A stretch of 61,270 nt of DNA, counting the filler. It is 4 parts of 4 records of this genome, joined end to end, with 100 filler letters (N's around TTAATTAATTAA, not from the genome) between each part and the next. Parts side by side here need not be neighbours in the genome. Positions count along the whole stretch, not along the records: positions 1 to 10,724 come from SRR20825010_3663; 3 more parts are not named here. One strand, 5' to 3'. Positions 1-29,194 of the stretch are shown piece after piece. The notes under the pieces are model-generated. The model saw only the letters and a list, made by a program, of their open reading frames with translations, had not been told where the DNA came from and ran no database searches. A program made the position numbers and the translations under genes. The first letter of the stretch is position 1. Each line of letters starts with the position of its first letter.

Positions 1-468
1 TCCCGGATTTCCCGAAATTCTCCGGGGGAAGTTTTCCCGTCGGAAAGTTTTGGTCATTACCGGAAATTCTACACGGAAAATTTTTCACGAAGGTACGTTT
101 ACCTGAATTCAAGGAAGTCCACACGTTAAACTTTTCTTATCCGGAAGTTTTATACACATCGTGTATGTTAAACACCTTTCCTATGGTGATGGTTACTTTA
201 ATTTCGTAGAATGCATCTACTCAACCAAAAAAATTCTGGTGCAGCGTGTCCTCCCCGAGAGAAATACAACAACATGTACACACAGTAATACACGTTATTA
301 ATACGTACTTTAATGTGCGTTGATCTACGCGGGGTACATGAATCTTCGGAAAGGTGTGTCACTACGTATATGAACGTTACACGCAAGTACGTATATGTGT
401 TAACCAGTTCCGTTTATATACATGCCCGTAGTAAATGCCTGGTAAATACATCACTTTACTTTATTCGT

Positions 469-483
469 TGTGTTTGGTTTTTT
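469..483 (-). ncRNA. Candidate gRNA core complementary to edited COX3 (CVWFF)
   Basis: + strand tgt gtt tgg ttt ttt ends 26 nt before the motif at 509. Resembles trypanosomatid COX3 HFVDxVWFFLLR; attacgt follows, but out of frame. Confidence 0.4.
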
Positions 484-651
484 ATTACGTGTAACACAAT
501 AACATACAGGAAAGGTGTACAGCATGTAAAAGTTGATATCTATGTACATGCCCACGCGTATAAATTAATAGTTACTACCGTGTATGTTATGCATACATCC
601 GATATAGCCGTGTACACCTTTCCTAAAGTGTAATACATCTAAATTCATTAT

Positions 652-666
652 CACAAAAAATCATTC
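652..666 (+). ncRNA. Candidate gRNA core complementary to CYb PEWFF region
   Basis: Reverse complement gaa tga ttt ttt = E W F F (UGA=Trp), preceded by ata ttg ggc (ILxEWFF vs ILPEWFF). Starts about 30 nt after motif 614-623. Confidence 0.45.
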
Positions 667-787
667 GCCCAATATGTTATAATATATAACGTGCAACATG
701 TTAACAAACATGTTATTTTTTAGTATACATGTACATACACATGAATTTCGTTGACATACCTACTGACGTTATAGTTTTACGGTGTTA

Positions 788-803
788 GTATATTGTCGTA
801 GTT
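788..803 (-). ncRNA. Candidate gRNA core complementary to CYb VYCRS region
   Basis: + strand gta tat tgt cgt agt t = V Y C R S. The match ends 31 nt before the motif at 834. Confidence 0.55.
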
Positions 804-2050
804 ACTATTGTAGTATGTGAATTGCACATTACAGGAAAGGTGTACTCGATGTGTAACAAACGCGTACGCTGGAAGTTGTACTATCCTATTACTACCCGAC
901 TTACACCTTTCCAGTGGGAACAAGACAATACACACACTAAACCGTATAGTGCATTATTCTTTACGTATTAGTGACACGTTACGGTACAGTACTACTATGG
1001 TAATATACTACCTTACTACATCCATACACATACATGTTGTGTAGACACCTTTCCATGTGTATGTGTTAAAAAATAACCGTGAATAACAATCCCAAAATAA
1101 TGATGGACATCACAATGTACTGCGTAGATGGTAGCTTCCCGGATATGTTATTACTACATCCTCTTCCAGGTAGCATACATGTATATATGTCTACGTGATG
1201 TTATACCCGCGGGCACATACATTTTTGTAAGGGTGTAACGCTACTACGTGAAGGACACCTTTCCGGGATGGATATTATAATGTTGCTTAACACATACAAA
1301 AACATGTAGAAGAATAACGCCAAACAGAGCAAGTCTTCTTGTTTGAGACTGTAATGATGCATCTACACCGTATTGTTTTATTACGTTATTTGAATACTAG
1401 TATCGCCTACACCGTATGTGCTTGGTGATAGATATGTACATATACGTAGACCTAAACTTGTATACACCTTTCCTAAAGTGTGTGTATGCGGTATCTTTTA
1501 ACAAAACACAAACAAACAACACAGAATTGTAATAAACGATAATATTAACTCGGTAACGTAACTTGTTGTGTAAGCATTGCGTGTTGTTACATATGATACC
1601 GTTACACACAGATACATAGTAGACTTAAAGCCCTGTACACCTTTCCGGCGTAGTACTAACAATCTTATACGGGTGCTATCGCACAACATACACATAACAC
1701 AAAATGGGGAGTAACTACCTAATCCCATAGACATGGTGCTACCCGGGGGAATGTTAAAAACGTATGAAAACATGTACACGACATATCGTTTACACGTAAC
1801 GTGCAACCTAATTACGCGCGCACAATACCAACGAGACATTACCGTGTATGAGTTGATATTTGTTTTTGTTTGTGTAAAATCTAACCTACCCCGTATAACC
1901 TAGGAAAGGTGTACAGCATTTGCTTATACAAAGATTTAAACGGCGACTGTTTAATTATTGTCGTGTCTACGACAGATGCCAGCCTGTCTGTAACCTACGG
2001 AAAGGTGTACCCCGGTGTGTAAAGGACATGTGTAATGCATCATCATGGTC

Positions 2051-2071
2051 ATTTTGTAGTTTGTTGTCCTT
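2051..2071 (-). ncRNA. Candidate ATP6 gRNA core (FC[N/S]LLS family, copy 1)
   Basis: attttgtagtttgttgtcctt ends 31 nt before motif 2102. Differs from 3503-3523 by three transitions only. Confidence 0.65.
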
Positions 2072-2340
2072 TACTGTGTGTACGATAGGAAACATTTTAT
2101 AGGAAAGGTGTACTCTGCCAGCAAAACACATAGATTGTATGCAACCACGTGCACACGATTTAGATATGTGGCAACTATCGTTACCCCAGGCATATACTGC
2201 GTAAATCTAACTTTTTTAGGTAAGCGCCCTAAACTAAACATGTCTTTACATAAACTCACAGAGGCTTATATACGTAAGATATTACAGCATGGGGTGTATA
2301 CACACACCTTTCCAGTAGGACCTATCGACACTGCTGTAAT

Positions 2341-2361
2341 CAGAGAAAAACACTCCAGAAA
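2341..2361 (+). ncRNA. Candidate ATP6 gRNA core (FLECFSL)
   Basis: Reverse complement ttt ctg gag tgt ttt tct ctg = FLECFSL, identical to the recalled trypanosomatid A6 peptide CFLECFSLL. Starts 28 nt after motif 2304-2313. Confidence 0.7.
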
Positions 2362-3502
2362 TTTCACAAAGTACAAGCAGTATATACTGTATACATGTAT
2401 AATAGTGTCGTGTGTATAAACGTATACTCATACACCTTTCCTAGTTAATCCTATACACACTATCGTATACGCTATCGCGAATCAATCAAATAACGTACGG
2501 CGTGTAACATATCATGCACATTGCACATTACATAAAGTGTAACATTACGGAACTAGTGCGCGGTTTTATAATGTATATGTGTTCCATTCATTCTGCAGAT
2601 TTTTATGTGGCCTGTTATACTAGTAATACCAGGAAAGGTGTATGTGCTGTGTAACAATACATGACGGGGGTTGATATATAACCACACCCTAACGAAGCGT
2701 TGCACGTATAGTCGTTCATTATAGGTCGTTTATCGTGTACACGATATGGTTAGTACACCTTTCCGGGGGTTGTATCTTCCCATTACGTATACATTCAATA
2801 AAAAAAATAAAGTTACATTACATGTATGCGGTCCATCCTGGATGTGTAGTGTACGCGTCTGTTAGTTCGTGTGAGTATATTATGCATGTGCATCTAAATA
2901 AACATAGTGTACTGGATATGTGGGAGGCCTTACGTATATCGTGTTGGTCTGCCGTTATTTTGCTCTATACTGTATACTGTGTTTATTGTGTAATATTAGG
3001 AAAGGTGTATTACTATACCCCGTGTGGCGGTACTTATATAGTGCCGTATACAGTATAAGGCATGGTGAACTACCCGAGTGTGTTAAACAACCCTATCCGA
3101 CAGTAAAGAATATCCACCTAGGAAGTATGTTTTTTTACGTGTAAGTATTACAACGTATATTAACTACACGGAAAGGTGTTTTTTTCAGGCTTGTATGTTC
3201 TTCGGTTAAGGGTCTGTACTTTATTGGCTTTACGTAAAATAATGCTTTACCAGTGCACACATATTACGCAATTACGTATAACCGTACGTGCAGCAACCGA
3301 TACATGTAGACGGTTTGGTGGTTTACATTACGAATGGTGATGCACCTAGCGGGAACTACACCTACACTAACAAGGGGTGCTACACTTCTGGTAAGTAATA
3401 TACACTATACGATTACATACGTGTAGGCGGGTTATCGACAATAACATGCATTTTCCGATCTGGTCCCACGGAAATTAGCGTACACGTATACATCGTATGT
3501 TA

Positions 3503-3523
3503 GTTCTGTAATTTGTTGTCCTT
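3503..3523 (-). ncRNA. Candidate ATP6 gRNA core (FCNLLS family, copy 2)
   Basis: g ttc tgt aat ttg ttg tcc tt = FCNLLS (recalled A6 RLFCNLLSSH). Ends 32 nt before the variant motif at 3555. Confidence 0.7.
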
Positions 3524-4684
3524 AGTTACTATGGGGTTAAGCTATACATGGCAAGGAAAGGTGACACACGTTGTGTACTAACAGTTTACTGGTATATGCT
3601 TTACGGATGACACGCAGTACACCGCGCACATACCATGTTTAAAAATGTATGTGTATAATACACAGTTAGACTATATGTATCTGTTACCACGTAAATACTT
3701 TGATGCCACCCCATGCAAACGTTGTATCGTATACACCCCGAGATGAAGAACTTACCAAACACAGATGGACCGTGTATCATCATATAATATAAACGTGTGT
3801 ATTATAATTTGTATGAGCGATAGCGATATACACAAGCACAACACCTGTTATAAGCGGAAAGGTGTACATCCTGTAATGGTATGGTGTAATATATTCTGTG
3901 GTGCAACATGTTATTACATTAATCCCATTAATGTCCCGTGGGGGATATACATGTTGTTGTAACGACGTATAACCATATGTCCTTGTACAGCACAGTTATG
4001 TCTACGTCGGTGTTTTGCTCTTTGTATACACAGTAAAGCATTACGTCCTACAGGAAAGGTGTATTATACAGTGTATGTACTGTAATATACTACACATGTA
4101 AACTACGGACGGGCCTTAACGGAAATTATTATTGTACATGAATAGTCCTTGCAGGCAGACATCGTACACACAGTATCCGGGTATAACCACATGGTAATGG
4201 ATTACATTACACGTACGCATGGTGTTGTATACAACCCGAGGTATTACGTAGGACAGGTATGTACACAGAATACGTACCACAGGTAACAACGGCGTGTATA
4301 ACTATCTTGTACGTATTTGTGTTTGCGTGTTATTGTAATACTGAACATAGTACTGTACGGAAAGGTGTAACTCTTGACATGTACGTGCGCATGAACAACG
4401 TCACGCAAACTACGTACACAGTGTCTGTCATATGTAACATTATATACATGTACACTTCCAACGGGTGTTCATTGTTTTTGTTGTTGCAGTATACCTTTTT
4501 AATCGTATTATAGGAAAGGTGTATCCCACGCAATATACGCGTAGGTGCACACCCTATCACGACGCAAATATGTCTGTTGTAACACGTAATGCCACGGGTT
4601 TTTCTGGGGTCATATCACATACTAACAAGCGTGTTGTAACGTTACTACACCTTTCCGAGAATAACAGTGTGTGTCATAATAATT

Positions 4685-4708
4685 ACAAAAATCAAAAAAT
4701 AGTATCAA
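4685..4708 (+). ncRNA. Candidate gRNA core (LFFDF; ATP6 or COX3)
   Basis: Reverse complement ttg ata cta ttt ttt gat ttt tgt; compare A6 LLMFFDFF. Starts 29 nt after motif 4647-4656. Confidence 0.4.
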
Positions 4709-4928
4709 AATTGTATAGTACAGCGTTTAACTATAATCGTGTACTTTACTTGTGAGTGTGTTTTGTTTTGTATTAACAGCACCCACTATCATTACTTTGC
4801 GGGAAAGGTGTATAGGCTTCGGGTGACATCTGCTAATTATATTACAGCCAATATGTGTATACATGTAGTGTACCGTAGCGTAAGCATCCAACACTTATTG
4901 TTGGTTACGATAAACACACACGGAACTT

Positions 4929-4958
4929 TGTAGTTTGCGTTTTGTTTTTTTTGTATTT
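4929..4958 (-). ncRNA. Candidate RPS12 gRNA core (CSLRFVFFVF)
   Basis: + strand translates CSLRFVFFVF vs recalled T. brucei RPS12 CCLRFVLFVL. Ends 30 nt before motif 4988. Low complexity weakens the match. Confidence 0.4.
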
Positions 4959-6506
4959 ACGTTACACGGTTTTATGTAATACACATAGGAAAGGTGTATC
5001 CCTGGTAACGTAGGTTGATAGTTTAGCATTATAGCAGTATCCTGTTGATTGCATACTGTATGGTATGCCTTGTGTGGTACATTCTATGCTGTAACACAAT
5101 TGCCGTAGACTAAGTTGCAAAGTACATTATTAATCAACTACGTTTTTGTTGTTTTTAGTATACGCGACACTTTACAACCTATTCCGGAAAGGTGTTATAC
5201 ATACTCACATACACGATGACAGGTGTATACCACATCTTGTACAGGTAAAACTAACTACACGTACATATAACTTATACCAAGCAAGTTCACCAGGCAACTT
5301 ATACTGTTAATATCAAATGATATGACGTGGATACTTTCCCGGCAAGAACAATGTTAGTCTACGTAAAACACGACATGTTTATACACACAGGTATGCTTTC
5401 GGATGTATAATGACTACACCTTTCCACGTAATACACACAAGTACGTTATGTGCTAACGCACAACAAAATTAAAAAATAAGTATAAACCACATGTCCTTAT
5501 ATGATAATAGTGTTCTCCTATACGGGGTAGGATACTTCACGTATATCAACGGTACATAGTAGACATGTGTACTTATCACCCGGTAATAACAACAGTAATC
5601 TGCATGCCTGGTAGACAGCTGTACGTACAGTACTCCGAGCAGTATATGTGCACACACCGTTGTGTAATATCCTTGTTTTACAGCCCGGGTAATGTATACT
5701 ATGTAACTATGTTACGTCATGTATAAACGTGTACTATAAATATACACACCTTTCCTATTATCCACGTAACATACACTTACCACCCAAAAAAAACAAACAA
5801 ACAGCATACATTACATACTATATACATTTGTAGACACACGTAATCCATGTCATACACACTTTTTTTACCGAGGTGGTTAACGTTATCCGCGGATACCGCA
5901 ACTGCCTATGCGTATGCAATTACATGCCCAGGTATGTAGTAACATGTTTTACACAGCATGGGGTTACACAGATAAATATCGGCACATGTAAAATAGTAAA
6001 AAACATCTTTCCATAGATCACAGTATGGTTAGTTAAGTAAACCTAACCAACAACGTGCATTGTAACAAAGTAATACAACACGTACTTTACACGTCACGGG
6101 TTGTTAATATTACACCCTTCTACTATTACGAGGTTCCTCCTGCATTGCATTATTATTTTGGGATTGATACTTGTAGCAAGAATTCTGTGTATATCTCGGA
6201 AAGGTGTGGGTGTTACCCGCGTAACCAGGTAACACATCGCCGTATACAGTGTTAAACCCACAGTTATTTTTATAATATTCTGTACCTTGTGTAGTAAAGT
6301 TCCTATTACCGCAATACTATAAGTACGTATCTTTTCTGTGTAACCTTTACGATGTGCGGTTGTACTGCCGCCTATAAAACCTGAGTTGCTTCGATGACTC
6401 ATGGATGTAAGTTATTTGTCCTATTTTTTTTGATGATGGTCCTGCATGGACCTGTACCCGCCTACCCACACCTTTCCAAATGTGTAATGAATATTTAAAA
6501 CCATAC

Positions 6507-6526
6507 AGGACAACAACTTACAAAAC
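6507..6526 (+). ncRNA. Candidate ATP6 gRNA core (FCNLLS family, copy 3)
   Basis: Reverse complement gttttgtaagttgttgtcct is 18/20 identical to 3503-3522. Starts 30 nt after motif 6468-6477. Confidence 0.6.
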
Positions 6527-9341
6527 ATGTATAGCATATTTTGCATGTAGTTGGCATCTGTAACTGTTATGGGAGTAACATACTATCCTGGTACGTATAG
6601 CGCTGTATGATCTTACAGTCGTGTACGCTACGTTCCCACTGGGTGTGTCACGTCACGCTAACGTTCACACCGACCCAGCATGTTTAACAACGCGTATTTA
6701 AAAAGTATATATCCGGTAGTGTTATTTTATAACAGTACGTAGTATGCACACCTTTCCTAATGTTACGTTCGCCCCGGTAGTACACGTATAATCACAAAAA
6801 AAAGATTACAACGTGTATGCGCGTAATACTATGTACGGGTGTTAGTGCACATCCAAAGTTGTGTGTTAGTAACGCAGTACACACCTTTCCTTTTCGTTCT
6901 TTAATACCGTATGCAACACACCCTGCGGGAAAGTATATGCGCTTATGGAACTGCGTTGTCCCGCTTATGCCGTGCATGCCGGTTTTCTGTCATTACACGT
7001 ACATTGCTCCGGTACATTATAGTATGTTCTTTTTATATGGGTACACACCTTTCCTGTAAGTACGTCGTGCATTACATTACAACAACAACAAAACAAAACC
7101 GAAGTAATAACATGGTACATCACAACCCTCGCAAGTTACGTACTTACGTGTGATAGGATGATATATTACATGTCTGGTAAGTGGATGCTTACTTTTTGGC
7201 ATTTGTTTTCCTGTACCTTACGTCGGTTTATGTTAAGTACAATACATCAGGACCGGTAGGGTACTTACGGTAACATACTGTGCAGTTACATTGTATACAC
7301 GCATACTATCACAATATATAGGATACATGTTTGACACCTTTCCGGCAAGTTATAATACCTTATACATAGTGCTACCGCACAAGTAAACTTATCATTATTA
7401 CGTTACGTTTGTACTATTTATATACGCGTACCGCTTACAAAAAAGAGTAATATATGTGAGTGTGTGTTGCTAACCTAACACACCTTTCCTGGGTAATGTA
7501 CTTACACCTATATGGTTCGTATACACTCACCCTCCCTAGTAGAGTACTGCATACAAACTGTACATAGTATGTAAGACTTACCCACATATATAAATATTAT
7601 ACTACGTATAACATACAACCCACGGTATGCTAATACGATGCATAGCCAAGAATAATAAGCGTGCTCCACCGGGCTTACCGGTTCTTATTTTGGGATTGTA
7701 TGTTTACGTACATGGAAGTGCGCGTACGGAAAGGTGTTCACACGTATGTAACCTACCATATGTATTATACATAGTGTTTTGCAGCAGTATACCCTATAGA
7801 ACAGTTAAGTGTAAACTGTGTACCACCGTACATCTTTCCGCTACGGTTATTGCTTATGATGTGTGCGTTTACATATGCACAAATATATGTAAGACCACAC
7901 CACACCACTTACATACAGAAATAACCTACCCTGTATAATACGTTGTATGTAAGCAATCATGCACCCGGTCTGGTACAATTAATGATATACATTAGGTTTT
8001 TTTTAATGTACTAATTACTACAGTGCAAGTTTACAACTGCTGGAAAGGTGTACCTCTGGTGAGAGGTTAACATTACACGCCTGCATTATTGCAGTATGCT
8101 TGCAGCATGTAGACGTATTGCAACCATGTACAACAACCAAAATAAAAGTAGAATACCCCCCCCCGAGTATACGTACCCATACTATCACAAATATATATTA
8201 ACTGTTGCTGAACGGGTGTAACGCAGGTTGTTATACTCGTAACGGTTGTATGATTACCTCGACGTACGGCATCAACGTATACTCAGATCGCTGCATATAC
8301 GGTATACACCTTTCCGGATGGGATATAAATATGTATGGCTTAGTCGTTACACTCCAAATTAAATAATGTAACACTTACTAACATACACTGTTGTACGTGT
8401 AATGCCCGTAATCCACAATATGTTGTTTGCTTACTACCTAGTTGGGTATAGATGGTTATCAAACGTATATACACCTTTCCTAGAAAATTAAAGTACACTC
8501 CGTTACATGCAAACAACAACGCATCCAACACAGTAGAGGTAACAGTAAACGTTACGGATGCAGTTGTATGTCTCGTATGCGTGGTGTAACCGGCACGCTG
8601 TATATAAGCCCGTATACGTAAAGACGCGTATGTAACGTTATACGTACAATAGTAACACCGGTGATATCTTGTTCGGTTTTAGTTGTTTAAGTTTACCGGA
8701 TGTATGATTATTACAGTTAACCCTGTTATAGTGGAAAGGTGCAGCCAATCACCCTACTAGGGGTTACTTTTATTAAACCTGCACCTTTCCTTATTTGTTG
8801 CGTTTTAAAAACCCGTAATACTTAAAAAACAACAAATAGCAAATTGTTGTACGTGCAGTTACATAGTATAGAGACACGTTACGTATATGTCTAGCGTGTA
8901 CACCTTTCCGAAAGCATCATACAGGCCTGGTAAAAACAACATCCCAAAATAAGGATATACTATTAATTTATACATACTTTTGTCGTTTTTAGTGGGGCGT
9001 AACTTTTGCACGGCGTATGGACCTGTATTACGCATACGTGTAGTATTCAAGACAGGCTATACTCTTACGTATTTCCGTTTGGTTTCATTGAGTTGTGTTC
9101 TGTGTAATATGTTAAACGTTATCCCTGGAAAGGTGTGATATGGGGGTCGTCCAGGTGACTACAATTTTCTGTAGACAGTACCACGATTACAACTACGTGC
9201 CGTACATATTACCACACGCACCACGTACGATAGTAAGTAATGTAATAACATACGAAACCCGGTTTTAAAATATAGAGCTCCTCGTGCATGTAAATGCAGA
9301 CTGTTCGTACACCTTTCCAGTATCACAGTAACGTACTTGTT

Positions 9342-9368
9342 CATACATACACAACATAAATAAAACAT
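9342..9368 (+). ncRNA. Candidate gRNA core complementary to the COX1 5' end (MFYLCCVCM)
   Basis: Reverse complement atg ttt tat tta tgt tgt gta tgt atg vs recalled trypanosomatid COX1 start MF(F/W)LCLVCLS. Lies downstream of motif 9309-9318. Confidence 0.5.
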
Positions 9369-10724
9369 AACGGTTATCGTATAAATTATAAACATTTATG
9401 TATGCGGGTACACTAACACCTTTCCGGATATGATTTGTTATCGTACATTAATCGTAAACACACAAAAAACGAGGGCTTACCATGTTGTTTGTAATATTTA
9501 CGCACGTTGTATATGCTACGTCTATTGTATACGTGTGGTATAAAGATATACGTTCAGTATTAACAGTATCCACGGGGTGGTGTATGTACGCACATGAGTT
9601 GTATACTACTGTTATGCATTACAGCCTACAGGATTTATTACCACAACAAATTACTGTGGTGTATATTACTAATATACAACAAATGCGGGTATACCTTTCC
9701 TGTATGTGTAATTGTTTATTTACAAAAAACAAAAACACACCACACAATTTTATATTGGTCTACGTGGGTAGTTACTACATCCTACACGGAGTATAACGCG
9801 AACCGTACACGTCAAGTTTTGTTTTTTTTGTTTTTGGGTTGGTGTGTGCTTGCTATGTATGGTTCCCGGGAAAGGTGTGGTAGCAATCGTGTTGTATATG
9901 TACACCTTTCCTATTAGAACTATGCGTAAATGTATGTGCCTTACACAAAACACAACGTACAATAACCGAGTTGGGACACGTACTTCGTACATCATGTTCC
10001 GTAGTATTGCTAGTATGTTGCATGGTGTGTATATACCTAGTTTACACACCTTTCCTAAGGCACGTAAAAGCATGGGATATACATAAAAACAAAAAAGGAA
10101 GGTTCCATAATTATGTATACACCACGCTACGTAATGTGTGTATGCATACACTATCAAAGTGGATCCTACTGGTATTTCCGGGGAATACACATGTGCATTT
10201 GACTTTGTATTATTTATTTCGTGATAACGAATATATGTATACACATGCTCGGTCCATGGAAAGGTGTACTACCACAACATACGTGCTATATGGGTATACA
10301 TGTGCACGCAACGCAAAGAACGCGTACCCTCCACTGGAAATATATGTCTATACGTTACACCTTTCCGTATGCGTTACGTTTATGTTTGTATATGCATACA
10401 ATCACAAACAGAACGTACAAATAAAAAAATGAAAACACGCTGTTAAGAGTATAAGCATTACAATACACGCACAGTATGGTGTAAGGTACTAGTTGGACTG
10501 TTAATAATACGTCACGCGCATCCGAGGGTGTGCACCTTTCCTATACACCATGTACAAACCCGGATCATAAACAATTCACACAAACAAAACTGTATAGCGT
10601 AAAGTACTACGTATATAGGTGTGAATTGTAAACAATGTCGTGTACAAGTAAAGGGACAAGAGTTAATTACGACATTAATACACAAACTTTTATTGGGAAG
10701 TTATCTCAGGTTTAAGAAACTTCC

Positions 10725-10824
10725 NNNNNNNNNNNNNNNNNNNNNNNNNNNNNNNNNNNNNNNNNNNNTTAATTAATTAANNNNNNNNNNNNNNNNNNNN
10801 NNNNNNNNNNNNNNNNNNNNNNNN
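10725..10824. other. Artificial contig spacer
   Basis: N-run + TTAATTAATTAA (stops in all six frames) + N-run; composition changes abruptly. Confidence 0.99.
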
Positions 10825-13800
10825 GCTGACCAAGGCGTACGTGAACGTGTCGCCAGCATCCGCATCGGTCGTGCTCAACGCACCCACTGCGGTTCCCGAT
10901 GCGACGTCTTCAGCGATGGTGTCGTTGTCAATCGCGATCGCGGTTGGCACGGCGTTCGTGCCGGTGATCGTAATCGTCAGGATCTGCGTGATGGTTGCTC
11001 CTGCCGAGTCCGTCGATTGAACACGAACCGAGTACGACGATTGGGTGTCGAAGTCGAACGTCGTTGCCGTCACCAAGTTGCTGCCATCAATCGAGAAGGC
11101 GGCGTTGTCGGTGTCGCCTTCCCCGCTGACGAGGGCATATGTGAACGTGTCACCAGCGTCAGCGTCCGTCGTGCTCAGAGCACCAACGACAGTGCCAGAT
11201 GCCACGTCTTCGGAGATCGTTGCGTTGTCAATCGCGAGCGACGTTGGAGCGTCGTTGGAATCGGTGATCGACAGAGTCAGAATTTGTTCAAACGTGGCTC
11301 CACCCGAATCGGTCGTTTGCACTCGAATTGAGTAAGACGACTGAGTCTCGAAGTCAAACGTAGTGGCTGTCACGAGATTGCTGCCACTGATCGTGAAGGC
11401 AGCGTTGTCCGTGTCGCCTTCGCCGCTGACCAAGGCGTAGGTGAATGTGTCCGAAGCATTCGCGTCGGTCGTGCTGAGCGATCCCACGGTGGTTCCGACG
11501 GTCGCGTGTTCTTCGATGTCCGTGTTGTCGATCGAAATCGCGGTTGGCGTTTGGTTGGCTTCGCTTTCCGTGATCGTGATCGTCAAGACTTGCTCGAAGG
11601 TTGCTCCGGCCGAGTCTTCCGTTTGGACACGAATCGAATAAGACGACTGGGTGTCGAAGTCGAACGTGGTTGCGGTCACCAAGTTCCCGCCACTGATGGT
11701 GAACGCGGCATTGTCGGTGTCACCTTCTCCACTGACCAGCGTGTAAGTAAATGTGTCCGATGCATCGGCGTCGGTCGTGCTGAATGCACCCACCGTGGTA
11801 CCGGACGCGGCATCTTCCGAAATGCTGCTGTTGTCCAGCGAAATCGCGGTGGGAACTTCGTTGGTGTCAGTCACGGTGATCGTGAGGACTTGTTCGAAAG
11901 TCGCGCCGGCGGAATCGGTCGTCTGAACTCGGATCGAGTAGGACGACTGAGTTTCAAAGTCGAACGTGGTCGCGGTGACGAGGTTGTTTCCGCTGATGGT
12001 GAAGGCAGCGTTGTCCGTGTCGCCATCGCCACTGACCAAGGCATAGGTGAACGTGTCCGATGCATCGTCGTCCGTGGTGGTGAACGAGCCAACCGTCGTT
12101 CCTGACGCGGTGTCTTCTGCGATCGTGCTGTTGTCGATCGCGATCGCGGTCGGAGCATCGTTCACGTTTGTGGCGGTGATCGTGAACGTTTCCACGGTCG
12201 ACAATCCAAACGGATCGGTGCTTTGGATTCGAACCGAGTAAGACGATTGGGTTTCGAAGTCCAACGATGCGGCGGTCACCAAGTTGTTGCCGTCGATCGC
12301 GAAGGATGCATTGTCGGTATCCCCCGTGCCACTGACCAACGTGTAGACGAACGAGTCCATTGTGTTGGCGTCGGTCGTGCTGAGCGTGCCGACGGTGGTT
12401 CCGATGTCTGCGTTTTCCTCGACGTCGTTGTTGTCAATCGCGATGGCGGTGGGTGCCACGTTGGTCGACGTGATGGTGATCGTGAACGTTTCTTCGGTGG
12501 ATAGCCCCTCCGCATCCTGCGCTCTCACTCGCACCGAATAAGACGATTGGGTTTGCTGGTTGGCCGCAAACGCGGTGACCAATTCTCCATTGGAGATGGT
12601 GAACGAGGCGTTGTCCGTGTCGCCGGTTCCCGAAACCAACGTGTAGGTGATCGTGTCGCCGGAATCCGGATCATCGGTGCCCAGAGTTCCAACCGTCGTG
12701 CCGCTTGGTTCACCGGTTGCGACGTGGGTGCCCGACAAAGTGATCGTGGTTGGTGCTTCGTTGACACTGGAAACCGTGATGGTGAAGGTTTCTTCGGTGA
12801 ATCCGCCCGTCGAGTCGGTGCTGCGAATTCGGATCGTCAGCGTGCCTTGCGTTTCGGCATCCAAAGATCCGGCGGTTTGCAATTCATCGCCGTCGATTTG
12901 GAACAACGCATTGTCGTCGTCGCCTTCACCGGTCACGAAGGTGTACGTGAACGTGTCACCGGATGTCGGGTCGGTGGAACTGAGGGTGCCCACGGTATCT
13001 CCGGCCGATCCGTTTTCAGCCACGGTGGAATCGCTGAGCGAGATCGCAGTCGGTCCTTCGTTGCTTTGAACAATCGTGAAGACTTGTTCAAAAGTTTCGC
13101 CGCCCGAATCCGTTGTTTGGATTCGGATGCTGTAACTGCTTTGCGTGTCGAAGTCGATCGTTGTCGCCGTTCGCAGTTCATTGCCCACGATGGTGAACGA
13201 GGCGTTGTCCGTGTCACCAGTGCCGGATACCAACGCATAGGTGAACGTGTCGGATGCATCCACGTCGGTGGTGGTGAAGGATCCAACGACGGTTCCCGAG
13301 ACCGAATCATCCGCAACCGAATCATCGCTCAGAGCGATCGCGGTGGGAGCTTCGTTGATGTCATCGACATTGATGGTGAAGGTCTGATCGAATGACAATC
13401 CGCCTTGGTCGGTGGTGCGAACCACGACGGTGTAGCTGCTCTTGGTTTCAAAATCGAGCGATTCTGTGGCGACCAACGAATTGCCAGAGATGGCAAATGT
13501 GGTGTCGGTGGTGCTGCCGTCGATCGAAACGATGCTGTAAGTGAACGTGTCCCCGGTGTTGCTATCGGTGGTCGAAAGGTCGCCAACCGAAGTGCTCGCC
13601 GCTTCGTTTTCAGCGATCGATGTGTCGCTCAGCGAAATCCCGGTGGGAGCGACATTTTGATCGGTAACCGTCAACGTGAAGACACGCTCAAGAGTGCGAC
13701 CAGTCGAGTCGGTGGTCTGCACGCGGATGGTGTAGGTGTCTTGCACCGATGAGTCGAAAACTTCTGCGGTCAACAAAGTGTTGCCCGAGATGGTGAACGA

Positions 13801-15138
13801 ACTGTTGTCCGTGTCACCTGTGCCAGAAACCAATGCATAGGTGTGTGTGTCGCCCGAGTCAGGATCCATCGTGGAGAACGTTCCCACGGAAGTTCCCACG
13901 GCAACATTTTCTGCCACGGTGGTGCTGGAAAGGCTGATGTTTGTCGGTGCTTGGGCATCCGGTAGATCCGGAATGTTTGGCGTCGACAATCCGACGACTC
14001 GTCGCAACAAATCGCTCGCGTCGAGTGGGCTCAGTCCGTCTTGTCCCGTCACATCACCGAGCAGGTTCGGGTCGATCGCGGCGAAAGGCACAAAGGTTTC
14101 GCCGGATGCGGTTGCGTCGGTGACAACAAAGCCGCTGTCCAAGTCGACTCCTACACGAGCAACCAACCGAGCATCTTCGGCGTCGTAACGACGGTTGGCG
14201 TTGACGTCGCCGGGGAACGCGACGACTTGAATGGCATCGTCCGCGCTGGCGGTCATGGCTCCCGCATTCACATCCAACGAACTGATCGTCAGGCTGCCAG
14301 TCGAACCATAAGGAGCGTCTTCTGGAATGGTCGCGATCAAGTCGATGATGTCGGCTTGGCCCGCGTCCATGGCCTCCAGGCTGAAGAACGTGATCGTTGC
14401 AACGCCGGGGGTGTCCAAGTTCGCTTCGACTTGGCTGCCGGTGGGGGCATCAGCACCAAGTTGAACGCCCGAGATATCAAGCAGTGCAGGATCGTACTGG
14501 ATTGTCATGGTGACCGACGTCACGCCATCCGCATTGCTCAGTTGAATCGGCAGCCCGGCTGGCAATTCCGTGCCGCTGCCACCGACGGGCAACTGAACCG
14601 TTTGGCTGGGTCCGCGAACGATGTCGGGCAACCCAACAACCAACGACGCGGGACTGGCAACGGTGAACGTCGTTACAAAGTTGCCGCCGGCGGTTCCGTT
14701 GTCATCGCCATCAAGAAGCTCGCCGTCAGCCAGATCGGTGAAGCCGTCGCTGGCACTTCGAAGAGTCGCTGTGTAGGTGTCGGCAGCGAGCGGTCCATCG
14801 GTTGCAATGAATGTAACGGTTGTGCCGTTGATAACGAGTGAACCGCGCACTTCACCAGTCGTTGCACCCTGCAACGTCACGTCAGCGGCGCCCGCCGCTC
14901 CAGCTTCAGTGTCGTACAAGTTGATTTTTTGGACGCTGATCTCTTCGCTCAACTCAGCGGTGAAGCCGGATGGAGTGGGTGCGAAGGAAGCGATCGTGGC
15001 CGCCAAAACGCGACGTGACTCCAGCGATTCGACTTTCAATCGACGATCGCTCGATCCGAGATATCGGCTCTTGTGGCGGGAATGACGGGGTTTATTCGAA
15101 GTCAGACGAGCTAGCAATCGTTGGACAGCGGGTTTCAT
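10825..15138 (-). CDS. Large planctomycete surface protein: N-terminal planctomycete extracellular motif, cohesin, dockerin, about 10 cadherin-like repeats (3' truncated)
   Basis: RRLKVESLESRRVLA motif; cohesin-like LPIQLSNADGVTSVTMTIQYDPALL; paired dockerin GDVNANRRYDAEDA / GDVTGQDGLSPLDA; repeated APTAIAIDN...DFETQSSYSIRVQTTD units. ATG at 15138. Confidence 0.9.
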
Positions 15139-15390
15139 AGATGGGAGACCTTGTTCGACCAAGGGTCGAGAGAAAAGCAATACTGCCGTCCCTGCTGAGG
15201 TTGGATTGTCACGCGGTCCCTGGCGACAAACGGAGTGCTCAATTCGAGCCCACGGTGATTTTAAGACGACGCCGAACGAATTTCGTCACCGGGCTTTTGA
15301 AATTTTTTTAGAAATTTTTTGTGCGTTGATGCGTCAGAGGTATCGTTGAGTGAGACATCGAAACAACAAGAAAGACTCTGGCAAGCTCTG

Positions 15391-16578
15391 ATGAAACCTT
15401 CTCGATCCCGTCGCCTTTCCGTTGAATCGCTCGAAGGCCGACGCCTTCTCGCAGCGGTCAATATTCCTGATGACCTCACGTCGGCACCCGATGCGATCGT
15501 CTCTGTTCCAGTGAACATTGACTCGGCAACCGGAGTGCGTGCGGCGGAGATTCGGTTGAGCTACGACACGTCGGTGTTGGATCTCGATGCTGATGACATC
15601 GACTTCGGCAGTATTTGGGGGGCCGGAAGTGACACCCAAGTCACTGCGAATGTGGACGACGCGGCGGGAACAGTGGTCATCTTTGTTTCTGCCTCCAGTG
15701 CGTTGACTGACGTTTCCGGCAGTCTGGTCGAACTTCCGTTTTCAGTGGCTAGCAACGCAGTGGTGGATAGCACCACGGTGCTGGACCTGACACAAGTCAC
15801 ATTGAACGAAGGACAAATCTCGGTCGATCCAGCACCCGTTTCCGGATCGGACTCAACCGACGGATTGATCACCATCACCGCGGCAGCAACCGGCGATGAC
15901 TCGATCTCTGGATTTGTATACGCGGACGCAAACAATGACAACGTTGTTGGAACCGGCGAAGCCATCCCGGGCGTCACAGTCACTCTAACCAACACATCCA
16001 CCGGCGCAGAATTTCAGACAACCACTGATGCCGACGGCAGTTACGAGTTCACCGATTTGGCACCCGGCGAATATGAAATTGTTCAGTCGCAACCAGTCGC
16101 TTACTTGGACAGTGGTGTCAACGAGCTGACCGTCACGCTTGTCGAAGGCACCACGCTCGAAGATCAGAACTTCCGCGAACTGGGGCTGCTTCCTCAGTAC
16201 ATCTTCAATCGCTTGCACACCAACACGGTGATGCCCGTTGGTTCCGACAATTGGAACGACGCAATCAGTGAGATCAACACCTTCGCCGAGTCAACGAATA
16301 GCTCCAGTGCGACAAGTTCTGCGGCAGCAAGTTCCAGTGTCGTGGCGGCATCCACTTCGTCCGCTAGCGGGACCGAGGCAACCACCACCGCGACCTCGGA
16401 TTCAACGGCCAGCGGCGAACCCTTGATGGATGAGTCCACCACATCGCCGGTAAGTTCCACCGCATCAAGTGTTGCCACCGCACAAACGGCGGCGATGGGA
16501 ACACCCGTTGGTTCCGGTGACGACGACTCGGATGACACCGCCGCGGTCGATGAAGTTTTTGCAAGCAATCTGTTTTAG
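15391..16578 (+). CDS. Cohesin + SdrD-B/Cna-B-like domain secreted protein with Ser/Thr-rich tail
   Basis: RRLSVESLEGRRLLA motif; VSVPVNIDSATGVRAAEIRLSYD cohesin; ISGFVYADANND...TTTDADGSYEFTDLAPGEYEI. Confidence 0.85.
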   Translation: MKPSRSRRLSVESLEGRRLLAAVNIPDDLTSAPDAIVSVPVNIDSATGVRAAEIRLSYDTSVLDLDADDIDFGSIWGAGSDTQVTANVDDAAGTVVIFVSASSALTDVSGSLVELPFSVASNAVVDSTTVLDLTQVTLNEGQISVDPAPVSGSDSTDGLITITAAATGDDSISGFVYADANNDNVVGTGEAIPGVTVTLTNTSTGAEFQTTTDADGSYEFTDLAPGEYEIVQSQPVAYLDSGVNELTVTLVEGTTLEDQNFRELGLLPQYIFNRLHTNTVMPVGSDNWNDAISEINTFAESTNSSSATSSAAASSSVVAASTSSASGTEATTTATSDSTASGEPLMDESTTSPVSSTASSVATAQTAAMGTPVGSGDDDSDDTAAVDEVFASNLF

Positions 16579-16910
16579 CGAAGCTTTTGAATCCCGCGTT
16601 TCGGGCACGAACTATTTGCTCGTGCCATGAAACAGATTTCTGTTTGCAACCTGTGCTTCCGCTTCGCATCGCCCGCTAAGAAAACGATCCGAGTCACTTC
16701 GATGACTCTCAATGAAACTCGGTTTTGCGCCAGCGAATTCTTGCAGAGTGTTCGCTGAGTGACGTTGACACAAATGTTCAGCCTGGACTACTTCTTTGAT
16801 TGAAGTCCCCAAGTTCGATTGGAGTTTCGAACTCCAATTGAATTTGCTGGGCGTTCATTGCACTCGTGATGAACAGAAGATTCCATTCGGAAACATACAT
16901 GGGAGCCAGG

Positions 16911-17546
16911 ATGGCCAAAACATGTCGCGTGTTGACGACCGAGCGTTTGGAAGGTCGACACTTGATGGCAAGTGTTTCGTTGGACCTCATCGGACCAGTT
17001 CCGATGCAAGAGTCCGTGGCGTCGATCCGAGTCGAAGATGCTCCCGCACTTCGAGCTGCCGAGATTCGATTTGAGTTCGACCCTCAGTTCGTGCAAATCG
17101 AAAAAGAAGACATCCGCCCCGGTGCGATCTGGGACAACAAAGCCGCTCTCATTGCGAATGTCGATGAGGAATCCGGCACCGTAGTTGCCTATGTGTTTTC
17201 CACTCAGCCGATCCTCGGCAGCGATGGCAACTTGCTCGACATTGAAATCGATCAATCGCGAAATGCGGCTTGCTTGACTCCGGCAAAGTTGGATCTTCAA
17301 CATGTCCGGTTGAACGAAGGCACAATCGAACTGGAATCCGAACCCGTCGCGGGACCGGACCCAACGGACCGTTCTGCAATGCGTTCCGCACGCTCGACAG
17401 ACATGTTTGCACCGCCGGAGACAAAGCCATTTATTGGCCCGGTCTTGCCGGACCACTTGAAACCCAGCCATGTGGACACGGTCATGAACGATATCTTCCG
17501 ATCACCCGTTCACGGAAGAATGCTTGGCTTTCAACGCAACGGTTGA
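16911..17546 (+). CDS. Small cohesin-domain protein, paralog of the upstream gene
   Basis: ERLEGRHLMA motif; shares RAAEIR, ANVD..GTV, LNEG and DxTD with 15391-16578. Confidence 0.8.
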   Translation: MAKTCRVLTTERLEGRHLMASVSLDLIGPVPMQESVASIRVEDAPALRAAEIRFEFDPQFVQIEKEDIRPGAIWDNKAALIANVDEESGTVVAYVFSTQPILGSDGNLLDIEIDQSRNAACLTPAKLDLQHVRLNEGTIELESEPVAGPDPTDRSAMRSARSTDMFAPPETKPFIGPVLPDHLKPSHVDTVMNDIFRSPVHGRMLGFQRNG

Positions 17547-17554
17547 ATGACCGG

Positions 17555-19117
17555 TCAACCGACAATCTCGCTGATCACACTTCCGTAGACATCGGTCAAT
17601 CGGAAGTCGCGGCCCGCATAACGATACGTCAACTTTTCATGATCCAGCCCTAGCAGGTGCAGGATCGTGGCGTGCCAATCGTGGATGTGGCATTTGCCTT
17701 CGACGGCTTCGTAACCATGTTCGTCGGTGGCTCCATAACTGAAGCCACCGCGAACTCCGCCGCCGGCCATCCAAGTGGTGTAACCCTTGTTGTTGTGGTC
17801 GCGGCCATCTCCGTTTTGAGCGTGTGGAGTTCGGCCAAATTCACCGGCCCAGATCACCAGCGTTTCATCCAGCAAACCTCGTTGCTTGAGGTCTTGCAAC
17901 AACCCCGCGATGGGTTGATCGATCTGCGAGCAATGATCGTCCATTTCATCTCGCAAGTTTCGGTGGTGATCCCATCCGGGGCTGACGCATTCGATGAATC
18001 GGACGCCGCGTTCTGCTAAACGTCGTGCCATCAAGCACTGACGACCAAAGTCATCCGTGCCCGAACCGTTGATGCCGTACAGCTCCAAGGTGTCCTGAGA
18101 TTCATCGGACAAATCGATCGCTTCGGGCATCTCGGATTGCATTCGATAAGCCAACTCAAACGATTCGATCATGCCTTCCACTTGTGGCTGGTGCCCATCG
18201 CGATCGAGTTTGTTTTGATTCAGGTTTTGAATCAGATCCAACTGAATGCGCTGCAGGTCCGGATCCAACATGCGGTTGGTCAGATTCGGAATTGCACTGT
18301 CATCGCGTCCGGCGAATTGATCGCGGAAGGGACGGCCAAACGGACGCTGTTGCATCGATGCGTCCATGCCACCCGACATCCCCATCCGCGACTCGGCGTA
18401 GCGTCGGCGTCGATCGCCGTTCATTCCCGATTGCATCCCGCGACGCATTCGACCGGGTTGATTCGAAGTGTTTGCACGCATCATGTTTTGAGCGAACCCG
18501 CCGCGGCTTCGACCGCCCGCTTTCATCTTGGTTCCCTGATAGATCGCCGGCAAGAATGAACTGGCATAGTTGCCGCTGTCACCAGGGGACGGATTCAAAA
18601 CGATGAACCCGGGCAAGTTCTCGTTTTCGGTGCCGAGACCATAAAGCGTCCACGCCCCCATCGACGGCCGCGGGAACTGGAAGTTTCCCGTGTGAGTTTG
18701 CGTGGTCGCTTGTGGGTGATTGGGCTGATCGCAATGCATGCCTCGCAGCAAACAAAGTTCATCGGCTTGCTTGGAAAGTTCAGGAAACAAATCCGAGATC
18801 CACAAACCACTATCGCCTCGCTGACGAAATTCCCACGGCGATCCCAACAACCGTCCGGTCCCGCCGTACTTGCCAACTTTGCCCGTGTCTTGTGTCAGTT
18901 GCGGTTTGTAATCAAACGTGTCGACATGTGACGGTGCACCCCGCATCGACAGAAAGATGACTCGCTTGGCTTTGGATTCAAAGTGTGGCTCTTTCACCTC
19001 CAGTGGATTGCTGGCGCGTGCTTGTTCGGTAGCCAATGCCGCGAACGCGAGGTAGCCAAATCCGCTGCTGACTGCTTTGAGTGCGTTGCGGCGAGAGAGA
19101 TCGTTTGGCTCTGACAT
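17555..19117 (-). CDS. DUF1501 family (sulfatase-like) Tat-exported protein
   Basis: SRRNALK Tat motif; AKRVIFLSMRGAPSHVDTFDYKP; GEFGRTP; GRDH; RDFRLTDVYG. Confidence 0.92.
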   Translation of the reverse strand: MSEPNDLSRRNALKAVSSGFGYLAFAALATEQARASNPLEVKEPHFESKAKRVIFLSMRGAPSHVDTFDYKPQLTQDTGKVGKYGGTGRLLGSPWEFRQRGDSGLWISDLFPELSKQADELCLLRGMHCDQPNHPQATTQTHTGNFQFPRPSMGAWTLYGLGTENENLPGFIVLNPSPGDSGNYASSFLPAIYQGTKMKAGGRSRGGFAQNMMRANTSNQPGRMRRGMQSGMNGDRRRRYAESRMGMSGGMDASMQQRPFGRPFRDQFAGRDDSAIPNLTNRMLDPDLQRIQLDLIQNLNQNKLDRDGHQPQVEGMIESFELAYRMQSEMPEAIDLSDESQDTLELYGINGSGTDDFGRQCLMARRLAERGVRFIECVSPGWDHHRNLRDEMDDHCSQIDQPIAGLLQDLKQRGLLDETLVIWAGEFGRTPHAQNGDGRDHNNKGYTTWMAGGGVRGGFSYGATDEHGYEAVEGKCHIHDWHATILHLLGLDHEKLTYRYAGRDFRLTDVYGSVISEIVG

Positions 19118-19159
19118 AACGTTGACCTGATGAGATTACGAAGTGGAGGAGTGAAGCTT

Positions 19160-19255
19160 CTTAGCGGAGCGGCGCAAGCCGCCCGGTGCGGCAATTCCCT
19201 GTGGCGTAGGCTTCCACCCTGGGAGTGAGGTCCACGAGCTGGAAACCCATTTCAC
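19160..19255. repeat. Planctomycete REP-like palindromes
   Basis: gcggcgcaagccgc hairpin plus a degenerate taggcttcca...tggaaaccca inverted pair, related to gataggcttccagcctgtc at about 21775. Confidence 0.5.
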
Positions 19256-19260
19256 ATGAT

Positions 19261-21714: not shown

Positions 21715-21769
21715 GGCGTCACGTGCAATCATGAAGTCTGACAGAGAAGAGATAAGAATGGGCATCCAA

Positions 21770-21793
21770 TGTGAGATAGGCTTCCAGCCTGTC
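21770..21793. repeat. Half of a Pirellulaceae-type REP (GTGxGATAGGCTTCCAGCCTGTC)
   Basis: Intergenic tgtgagataggcttccagcctgtc; similar to 19201-19255. Confidence 0.45.
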
Positions 21794-21849
21794 GTCCTTC
21801 AAAGCGAAACCCCCGGATCACTGACCGGCACCACCGGCGTCGGTCACCA

Positions 21850-22281
21850 TCATTCACCGGGGCGTTTGGGCTGCACGCCCTTGTCCTGGTTTCGTATCGC
21901 ACGTTGACCATCAGCTCCCGGTCGCATCCCTTCACGGCCTTGGCCTTGCCGACCTCGCATGCCTTGCATTCGATCTTCGCGAATCGCTGTCAGGGCTGCA
22001 GCGAGTTCTTTTTCATTGAGAGCACCATCGCCGTCCTTGTCATGGTCTTTGATCAATTTCGCTGCGATCTTGGTTGAGTCCAATTGCATACCGGCGCCCA
22101 TCCGCCGTCTGGCTTGCGGGTCGCGCTCGCCATCTTTGGCCATGCGGTTGGGTTTTTGAGCGAACGCGACTGACGAGATCAGTGGCAGGGCGGTTCCGCC
22201 GGCCAACAATTTCATCAAGAAGCGACGTCGCTGTGGGTGCTCTTCTGCAGGCTGACTCGAGCCAATGTTTTCGTTTGTCAT
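21850..22281 (-). CDS. Small Tat-exported EF-hand protein
   Basis: QRRRFLMK Tat signal; DKDGDGALNEKEL EF-hand loop. Confidence 0.8.
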   Translation of the reverse strand: MTNENIGSSQPAEEHPQRRRFLMKLLAGGTALPLISSVAFAQKPNRMAKDGERDPQARRRMGAGMQLDSTKIAAKLIKDHDKDGDGALNEKELAAALTAIREDRMQGMRGRQGQGREGMRPGADGQRAIRNQDKGVQPKRPGE

Positions 22282-22417
22282 TGTGAATTCCTGTTTGGGA
22301 ACTGGGGCAAAAAGATTGATCCAAAGGGACGGTTGGTGCAAAGTTTCAGGTAACTCGTCACGGAACGTCCTGTGGGACGCTTCGCACAAATGGCAACTGA
22401 AACTCTGCTGCTATGCA

Positions 22418-23890: not shown

Positions 23891-24405
23891 CCGTTTGCAC
23901 CCTCCGAAACGAATTTGTCTTCGATGCATTCACGAAGTTGTTCTCGGATCCGCTGCAAGGCTTTGGATACCGAGTTGGCCGTCATCCCAATTTGTTCGCT
24001 GATCGCGATCGGCTTGAGTCTCTTTTGATATCTCAGTTCGCAGATCTTTCGGGAGCGACCTGATAATTGATCAATGCACGTCGGCAAATGATCCAGTTCC
24101 TCCGGAGGCGATGATTGCTCGAACGTCGACTGCAAATTCGCGATCGTTTCTTCGTTGAACACCAGACGATCGCGTCGACGACGTCGCAGATACAAACTGA
24201 TTTGGTTGCGTGCGACGCCAATCGCCCAGCCCTGAAACGCTTGCGAAGAATCGTAGGATTCGAAGGAATTCAAAACCGCGAGCGCAGTCTCTTGCAGCAC
24301 ATCTTCGCGATCGCGGCGATCTCGAACCACCGACGCAACGAAAGCGGCCACCACCGGCTGAGCCGAGGTCCACAATCGGGTCGCATGGCGTGTTGAATCG
24401 TCCAC
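23887..24405 (-). CDS. ECF sigma-70 factor
   Basis: EDVLQET, FQGWAIGVARN, and C-terminal HTH VSKALQRIREQLRECIE. GTG start with AGGAG RBS. Confidence 0.92.
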   Translation of the reverse strand: MDDSTRHATRLWTSAQPVVAAFVASVVRDRRDREDVLQETALAVLNSFESYDSSQAFQGWAIGVARNQISLYLRRRRRDRLVFNEETIANLQSTFEQSSPPEELDHLPTCIDQLSGRSRKICELRYQKRLKPIAISEQIGMTANSVSKALQRIREQLRECIEDKFVSEGANG

Positions 24406-24625
24406 TCATAACTCCTGGAATTGGGTTTGCATCAGTTCCTTATCCGCTCGAATCAAATCATGACATGAAAGCGGCCGTTTTTTCGAAATTTGTGATTCCG
24501 CCGTCCTCCACGCGGCCAATTGTTCTCAATCGCTGGAGTACGATGGAGCCCCCATTCCCACCGCAGCAGACCGGCCTGAACAAACGTTTGCCTGCCTGTC
24601 CCCACCTCATGTACCCCACATCCAG

Positions 24626-25969: not shown

Positions 25970-26002
25970 CGATCGATCGTTTGGAGACTCTGAACGAAAG
26001 TG

Positions 26003-29094: not shown

Positions 29095-29194
29095 NNNNNN
29101 NNNNNNNNNNNNNNNNNNNNNNNNNNNNNNNNNNNNNNTTAATTAATTAANNNNNNNNNNNNNNNNNNNNNNNNNNNNNNNNNNNNNNNNNNNN
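29095..29194. other. Artificial contig spacer
   Basis: N-run + TTAATTAATTAA + N-run. Confidence 0.99.

Follow-up and report, generated by a model that had tools for sequence, protein, structure and literature searches.

Recurrent 20-nt words in motif-anchored cassettes of a gene-less, high-copy DNA molecule: candidate guide-RNA genes of a marine or estuarine kinetoplastid

The present analysis concerns a 20-nt word that recurs three times, each time about 30 nt from a short motif, in separate cassettes of one DNA molecule (contig 1), which forms the first part of a 61-kb stretch of DNA, referred to here as the window. The likeness of the three words is real and goes beyond chance, and the words prove to be members of a much larger set of similar elements, on contig 1 itself and on related molecules found in metagenomes. 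The interpretation we favour, with moderate confidence, is that contig 1 is a guide-RNA-only kinetoplast DNA (kDNA) molecule of a free-living marine or estuarine kinetoplastid, in which the three sites would be redundant genes for one guide. It is built on six kinds of observation: the anatomy of the cassettes, their base composition, the pattern of conservation, the copy number of the molecules, the absence of genes, and the distribution among samples.

The window consists of four unrelated contigs with very different G+C, joined at three spacers. The features on which the argument turns are as follows.

1..10724, no strand assigned: contig 1, the cassette carrier, 38% G+C; the whole finding lies inside it
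2051..2071, + strand: word copy 1, ATTTTGTAGTTTGTTGTCCTT, given as the T/G-rich, 'mRNA-like' strand; a small RNA with the complementary sequence is predicted from the - strand
2102..2111, + strand: cassette motif of copy 1, GGAAAGGTGT
3503..3523, + strand: word copy 2, GTTCTGTAATTTGTTGTCCTT; its 16-nt core is exact in two sister contigs, L044 and L082
3555..3564, + strand: cassette motif of copy 2, GGAAAGGTGA, a one-mismatch variant with A as its last base
6507..6526, - strand: word copy 3, GTTTTGTAAGTTGTTGTCCT (reverse complement); the T/G-rich strand is the - strand
6468..6477, - strand: cassette motif of copy 3

Three copies of one word beside a common motif

All three 20-mers are present, letter for letter, where the initial annotation had placed them. 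The distances of 31, 32 and 30 nt that it gave between word and motif hold as coordinate differences and not as intervening bases, which number 30, 31 and 29. Sites 1 and 2 are three transitions apart, with no transversion between them, and the longest exact run they have in common is 12 nt; site 3 shows one extra T/G transversion relative to both. That the flanks are unrelated, as had also been proposed, was borne out by a MAFFT alignment of the 136-nt cassettes, in which likeness is confined to the word and the motif. Searching the 61 kb with the 20-mer consensus, and allowing up to three mismatches, returned the three word sites only, compared with an expectation of 0.02, and none of 100 shuffles reached three matches.

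The likeness was also assessed across all 56 motif-bearing cassettes of contig 1, by comparing 20-mers taken at the same offset and using two null models, one in which columns are shuffled among cassettes and one in which letters are shuffled within each row. Eight pairs identical at 17 or more of the 20 positions were observed. The null means were 0.98 for column shuffles and 0.79 for within-row shuffles, and under each model 0 of 300 shuffles reached eight; a fully connected three-way clique appeared in one of 500.

Cassette anatomy and word families

Contig 1 has 56 copies of the motif GGAAAGGTGT at up to one mismatch, divided between the strands as 24 and 32. Only four matches, each with one mismatch, fall outside it, in 50 kb, and the total of 60 for the whole window compares with 3.85 expected. 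When the 56 cassettes are oriented on the motif, positions -48..-28 are 68–93% T+G, with C and A almost gone near -40, and composition is at background both farther upstream of this block and downstream of the motif. Since every cassette of contig 1 has the T/G block, the three words are instances of a general feature. The same profile recurs independently in the cassettes of sister contigs (405 rows, contig L040 included) and in a pooled set of 452 cassettes, one per 209 bp, from 15 contigs, namely contig 1 and the 14 sisters among the matches listed. L040, which has nine motif matches, is an unrelated GT-rich repeat and was removed, the 405 rows from 15 metagenome loci becoming 396 rows from 14.

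In the pooled cassettes, the words at -43 to -30 are ~50–65% T, 17–31% G, 9–19% A and 4–8% C. Read on the RNA-sense strand, the block is 70–87% A+C and its G content falls to 4–8%, as in an A/C-rich, G/U-poor 5' anchor. The T-rich signal begins ~25–28 nt ahead of the block's proximal end, which itself lies mostly 22–35 nt from the motif, and beyond ~25 nt the composition is back to background. No strong consensus was found after the proximal end in the pooled cassettes, including any start of the ATATA type. In RNA-sense order, a cassette consists of TACACCTTTCC, an unconstrained spacer of ~25–30 nt, and a conserved, A/C-rich and G/T-poor segment of ~20–28 nt. A conserved flanking element at a fixed ~20–40 nt upstream of the candidate guide, as in guide-RNA genes, is present, the separation from the proximal end of the block being 25–35 nt in most cassettes, and that from the word 29–31 nt at the three sites.

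The spacing between neighbouring motifs in the pooled cassettes depends on their orientation. Head-to-head motifs come as close as 0–26 nt, motifs in the same orientation are mostly 60–90 nt or more apart, and tail-to-tail motifs are separated by at least 138 nt, three outliers aside. This pattern implies a unit that takes up ~60–75 nt, all of it on the side of the motif where the T/G block is. Head-to-head pairs in the window are seen at 8733-8790 (38 nt) and 9869-9911 (23 nt), the first of which is made up of two copies of the rarer, C-ending variant of the motif.

Two other families of words were recognised in contig 1, both at the same motif offset and both with unrelated flanks.

1089..1100 (-), 6153-6164 (+), 7685-7696 (+), 8941-8952 (-): second word family, TTATTTTGGGAT(TG), four copies
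1673..1686 (-), 5450-5463 (-), 7369-7382 (-): third word family, TTGTGCGNTAGCAC, three copies

Similar relationships extend across the pooled set. With L040 still among the rows, 96 pairs of words are identical at 18 or more of 20 positions, compared with 6–14 in five column shuffles, and single linkage gives 37 families. The family of the three original words gains members at L044:2129-, L059:7375- and L082:8897-, making six in all at the same offset; of the 220 loci compared, two, L044 and L082, carry its 16-nt core, TGTAATTTGTTGTCCT, without a mismatch. Among the 92 pairs at 18 or more of 20 that were obtained without L040, identity is 0.79–1.00 inside the 20 nt of the word and 0.26–0.30 elsewhere, where random pairs give 0.26, and it drops to background within 1–2 nt on either side. 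Simple duplication of cassettes, to which similarity extending evenly through them would have pointed, was considered as an origin of the words and rejected, as identity outside the word is at background. The initial annotation is upheld in proposing independent cassettes that have a single short word in common, at a constant distance from the motif, now with three further copies on sister molecules. Its statement that the copies vary mostly by G:U-type transitions applies to sites 1 and 2 only, and fails for site 3, for two of the three outside copies, and for the near-identical pairs of the pooled set, in which transitions are 68 of 166 differences (41%, versus 22–27% in shuffles at similar thresholds, the pairs not being independent of one another). 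Transitions are thus enriched among the variants of the words, though they are the minority.

Two further observations concern individual cassettes. In a subset of them a small G+C hairpin (GTGC-N4-GCAC, TATGC-GGA-GCATA or GCC-GAA-GGC) takes the place of plain T/G at the end of the T-run; these lie at 1673-1686, 5450-5463 and 7369-7382 in the window (- strand), and at L038:887-, L038:7833-, L044:1806-, L044:2433- and L104:972- on sister contigs, and they could represent a distinct class, either of RNA or of target. The proximal end of the block at L069:5313- (..TTGGTTCCGTAAT) matches word copy 2 in its distal part (window positions 3490-3510) along 15 nt, differing by three transitions and no transversions. 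This resembles the next guide in a cascade, but the count of matches at that shift equals the shuffle null.

One explanation for the words needs no selection on the word, only a common T/G-rich composition and the usual course of duplication and decay. Composition does account for part of the likeness, because every cassette is T/G-rich at the word offset. Contig 1 is also of low complexity, and holds 22 exact repeats of at least 13 nt outside the motif (13–15-mers also at other offsets), with both copies away from the block zones in 15 cases and both inside them in seven, the zones being 15.7% of the contig. As exact repeats of 13–15 nt are this common, the 12-nt run that is the longest between sites 1 and 2 is unremarkable on its own, and the case for the words rests on the fixed offset and on conservation across multiple copies, not on the length of any match. 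It is on these points that composition and decay do poorly: position-preserving shuffles never reach the observed number of pairs and reach the triple only once, the three additional copies come from other samples and from unrelated molecules yet keep the offset, and the sharp loss of identity at the edges of the word is unlike the decay that follows duplication. We disfavour this explanation and regard it as most improbable.

The carrier molecules and their relatives

Contig 1 has no credible gene: Rfam at gathering thresholds returned no family, ARAGORN found no tRNA, and the only open reading frames (ORFs) of at least 120 aa are two mechanical ones at 9750-10432. Its dinucleotides are strongly biased, with GA/TC at 0.5 of expected, AG/CT at 0.65 and AC/GT at 1.6, and the trinucleotides TGA and TCA are depleted to ~40% of expectation. 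These depletions explain the false stop-free frames, up to 742 codons long with the ciliate code and present in all six frames, that might suggest protein coding, a possibility that was rejected as an artefact of composition. One idea is that the bias comes from avoidance of stray, motif-like GGAAAGG sites. Across contig 1 and its 14 sisters, translation with code 4 gave no ORF of note, the longest being 239 codons.

A single scan of metagenome contigs, for pairs of motifs 131–161 nt apart, was used to seek sister molecules. It gave at least 116 stretches, most of which are chance occurrences or unrelated repeats. Among the matches listed are 14 sister contigs (L011, L015, L025, L034, L038, L044, L045, L059, L069, L082, L085, L090, L096 and L104), which have the same G+C as contig 1 and carry the motif on both strands at 3–6 copies per kb; 13 of the 14 are scaffolds of one Tara sample, and L044 comes from another project. 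By BLASTN, the sisters and contig 1 are alike only at their termini, at 92–93% identity over ~50 nt (for example, the ends of L082 and L090), and their bodies are unrelated. A scan of prokaryotes, with one genome for each of 185,579 species, returned 104 stretches, none with the cassette density, and a scan of IMG/VR viral contigs returned three, none of them alike. A contig from a giant-virus metagenome-assembled genome (L222, 9533 nt, 28% G+C) contains eight copies of CACCTTTCC, all on one strand, and is unlike the cassette contigs.

At least part of contig 1 is contained in nine run rows from five studies; three of the rows contain all of the sampled words and one, an estuary metagenome, 0.48 of them. 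None of the runs that contain contig 1 is on record as RNA; in the X5 run, whose RNA type is only a guess, there are 13 matching contigs, which are uninformative as to small RNAs, and the eight listed are 212–303 nt long and of low depth. In a 212-Mb run, a Logan contig of 10743 nt covers all of contig 1 at a depth of ~423, and the depths of these molecules in that run range from 423 to 1104. Contigs of 10130, 10665, 10576, 11477 and 11498 nt match only the first ~50 bases of contig 1. The depth at the end of contig 1 is ~5700 (5697) versus ~500 in the body, or about 10 times that of the body, and the assembly ends are loose, in that the terminal region of contig 1 continues as a repeat of itself. 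The 10576-nt contig has the terminal repeat at both ends, in inverted orientation.

1..170, no strand assigned: repetitive terminal region of contig 1, with units of the GGGAA..TTCCC type, the first ~50 nt common to sibling molecules
10725-10824, 29095-29194, 56187-56286: spacers of the form N44-TTAATTAATTAA-N44, artificial joints across which features are not readable

The terminal units are degenerate, ~15 nt long and built on palindromic GGGAA..TTCCC cores within a ~50-nt repeat, and terminal regions were also located at L090 11580-12073, at L096 3600-4130 and at both ends of L069. Beyond its terminal repeat, L096 also has a tandem array (4135-4729) with a period of 79 nt, 7.7 copies and 76% matches. 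Contig 1 is one of a family of high-copy, gene-less molecules of ~10–12 kb with shared repetitive ends and individually different bodies. Their ends are probably inverted and the molecules themselves linear. They come from marine and estuarine samples and also from some cultures, and are a feature neither of prokaryotes nor of assembly.

Molecules of this kind could also be high-copy linear plasmids or satellites on which the cassettes act as DNA sites with no RNA product, for protein binding, replication priming, nicking or packaging, in which case the word families would be variants of such sites or remnants of old duplications. The sequence GGAAAG is common to the motif and the terminal repeats, GA/TC and AG/CT steps are depleted elsewhere in contig 1, as if stray sites were avoided, and an RNA product of the cassettes is a prediction. 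Words of 20 nt at a fixed offset, different from one another in their hundreds and each specifically conserved, are not something that a binding site would need, and the same word is exact across samples while both of its flanks are randomised; moreover, the one-sided footprint of 60–75 nt looks like a transcription unit. For these reasons we hold sites acting at the DNA level to be improbable.

Of the other contigs in the window, which are bacterial and unrelated to contig 1, the one at 10777-28452 is planctomycete-like, ordinary, and unrelated to the words. Its genes include those for a 1467-aa cadherin-repeat protein with a Planc_extracel signal, a DUF1501/PSCyt-PSD1 pair, FecR and a GH10 xylanase.

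A guide-RNA reading and its alternatives

If contig 1 is guide-RNA kDNA, each of the 56 cassettes would be a mini-gene needing ~60–75 nt, in which TACACCTTTCC, on the RNA-sense strand, would serve as a transcription or positioning signal. The small RNA would start ~25–30 nt downstream of this motif with the A/C-rich, G/U-poor stretch of ~20–28 nt, and this stretch would be antisense to a U/G-rich segment of an mRNA edited by U insertion. The mRNAs that kinetoplastids edit by U insertion are likewise rich in T and G and poor in C, as the words are. The three words could then be paralogous genes for one guide, their pairing segment of ~20 nt kept by selection while the flanks drifted apart. Transcription, antisense pairing, the role in editing and the organism are what we infer from the cassettes and their carriers, which have the high copy number, lack of genes and shared ends of known guide-RNA carriers; a mitochondrial location and a kinetoplastid host are part of the same proposal.

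The closest published counterpart is Trypanoplasma borreli, whose guide loci are distributed over both strands of contigs of ~70 kb that are probably linear and end in repeats; a 9-nt motif, RYAGGCTTT, is found upstream of the guide, 20–40 bp from the mRNA match (PMC9679448). The guides of this species have a median length of 28 nt, are highly redundant and form few G:U pairs (0.11 per base), and the contigs (ScaI-flanked kDNA) carry ~23 loci each, found by aligning known edited mRNAs (PMC9679448). Like these, the molecules described here are gene-less and apparently linear, have repetitive termini, and carry their cassettes on both strands in no evident order, with a motif at 20–40 bp; the short conserved words and their redundancy are also in keeping with the short guides, few G:U pairs and high redundancy published for that species. 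They differ in the motif, which is GGAAAGGTGT(A) on the mRNA-like strand and not RYAGGCTTT, and in scale, with ~50–60 cassettes on ~10–12 kb instead of ~23 loci on ~70 kb, so that molecule size is lower about sevenfold and cassette density higher more than tenfold. In addition, the cassettes were recognised here by motif and block, and not by alignment to edited mRNA.

Resemblance to Trypanosoma brucei is more limited. In that species the minicircles are catenated 1-kb circles with 3–5 cassettes flanked by 18-bp inverted repeats, the RNA starts at a fixed 30–32 nt from the cassette repeat, the 5' anchor is AC-rich and GT-poor, and the redundant guides are ~42 nt long, form many G:U pairs and have a guiding region rich in G (PMC9202587). 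The fixed distance from a conserved element, the A/C-rich and G/T-poor segment and the redundancy are common to both. Unlike T. brucei, each cassette here has a single motif of 10–11 nt and no bracket of 18-bp inverted repeats, and its segment is ~20–28 nt long, contains almost no C, the base by which G:U pairs would be recognised, and lacks a start consensus of the ATATA type. The guide candidates of Perkinsela have a 5' tract rich in A or A/C and are carried on short high-copy contigs, with no common flanking motif reported (PMC4669381). The molecules described here are similar in the A/C-rich tract at the 5' side of the guide and in their short, high-copy carriers, and differ in having a common flanking motif. 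The kDNA of Bodo (Parabodo) caudatus reportedly consists of free, non-catenated circles of 10 and 12 kb, in work attributed to Hajduk et al. in 1986. The size classes seen here, 10.1–10.7 kb and 11.5–12.1 kb, agree with those reported for that species, although the latter were described as circles and are not known to have been sequenced, and the parallel is a lead only. The 11-nt motif appeared in the literature only in 14 papers, all with unrelated contexts, and no description of such molecules was found in those parts of the literature on guide-RNA organisation in bodonids that were available.

Several points weigh against a kinetoplastid guide-RNA origin. Complementarity, which is the defining property of a guide, is a prediction made from one partner of the presumed duplex, and contig 1 carries no organism marker that would tie it to a kinetoplastid host. 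A purine-rich guiding region of ~30 nt with frequent G:U pairs, as in trypanosomatids, is missing. The conserved segment, at only ~20 nt, is unlike the ~42-nt guides of trypanosomatids and fits only the short, G:U-poor type of T. borreli, and there is no wobble-tolerant extension beyond the word, purine/pyrimidine identity being ~0.5 outside the 20 nt. Within near-identical words, 59% of the differences are transversions. A test for cascades or overlaps gave a 2–3-fold excess of matches at shifts up to ~9 nt that was null by ~11, and the low complexity of T/G-rich sequence could give the same result. Lastly, the published systems compared offer no match for the density seen here, with a cassette roughly every 200 bp over a molecule of 10 kb.

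Some of these points also fit mini-genes of the same kind whose small RNAs are not guides for uridine insertion/deletion (U-indel) editing, or whose host is a protist other than a kinetoplastid, the carrier being an organelle chromosome or a linear plasmid. The RNAs could be antisense regulators, or guides for another RNA or DNA process, and the words would again be paralogous genes of one RNA. Autonomous small-RNA mini-genes with an upstream motif at a fixed spacing do exist, nematode 21U-RNA genes being an example. The conserved segment of ~20 nt with no wobble extension, the lack of a tie between contig 1 and Kinetoplastea, and a motif found in no relevant literature context are all compatible with such an origin. 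Against it stands the T/G-rich, C-poor character of the words, which is also that of U-insertion-edited kinetoplastid mRNAs. It must also account for the joint match to T. borreli in type of molecule, in the distance of the motif, in the placement of loci on both strands and in short guides with few G:U pairs, which would be hard to arrive at by accident (PMC9679448). We consider this origin unlikely. A more specific version is that these are ~10–12-kb, probably linear arrays of ~50–60 autonomous small-RNA mini-genes, each with an 11-nt motif and a 20–25-nt, near-Watson-Crick guide, that serve an RNA-guided system other than classical kinetoplastid U-indel editing. The host may then be a non-kinetoplastid euglenozoan or another marine protist, or such RNAs may have a second function, and we judge this version quite improbable.

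If kinetoplastid guides are nevertheless assumed, the nature of their target can be considered. The initial annotation had assigned the word to ATP6 (A6), and this is possible but doubtful, and unsupported. In the reading frame it used, the six copies give FCS-, FCN- and FCK- in the window and DCN-, YCN- and LYK- outside it, each followed by LLS. The A6 peptide concerned would correspond to the conserved arginine-helix region of trypanosome A6, and the assignment depends on a putative match of six residues to it. No paper was found for the peptide words in the full-text literature, and a phmmer search of all PDB chains with the 24-aa translation around site 1 gave no match at E-values up to 10. 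If sites 1 and 2 both pair strictly, with G:U allowed, the column in which they differ as A/G implies a G in the target, and therefore a Ser codon rather than one for Asn; the T/G column found in two of the six copies would imply either a mismatch or a second target.

Should the array instead serve a system other than classical editing, it would give a first sight of the guide repertoire of an organelle RNA-processing system with unknown specificity factors. If the favoured interpretation is correct, and contig 1 is guide-RNA kDNA, these molecules would represent a compact and dense form of guide-RNA chromosome, packed with a mini-gene about every 200 bp, each with one short motif and a guide of ~20–28 nt. 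Their source would be a free-living kinetoplastid of marine or estuarine waters, and kDNA from this group is almost unsequenced. The three copies of one guide would be a case of ordinary guide redundancy. Since the motif is strict, the guide repertoire can be read from metagenomes, as illustrated by the 452 cassettes obtained with one pattern scan, and the redundancy and turnover of guides would become comparable across natural populations. Once the edited mRNAs are known, such molecules would also provide a test of how short, and how free of wobble pairs, a working guide can be.

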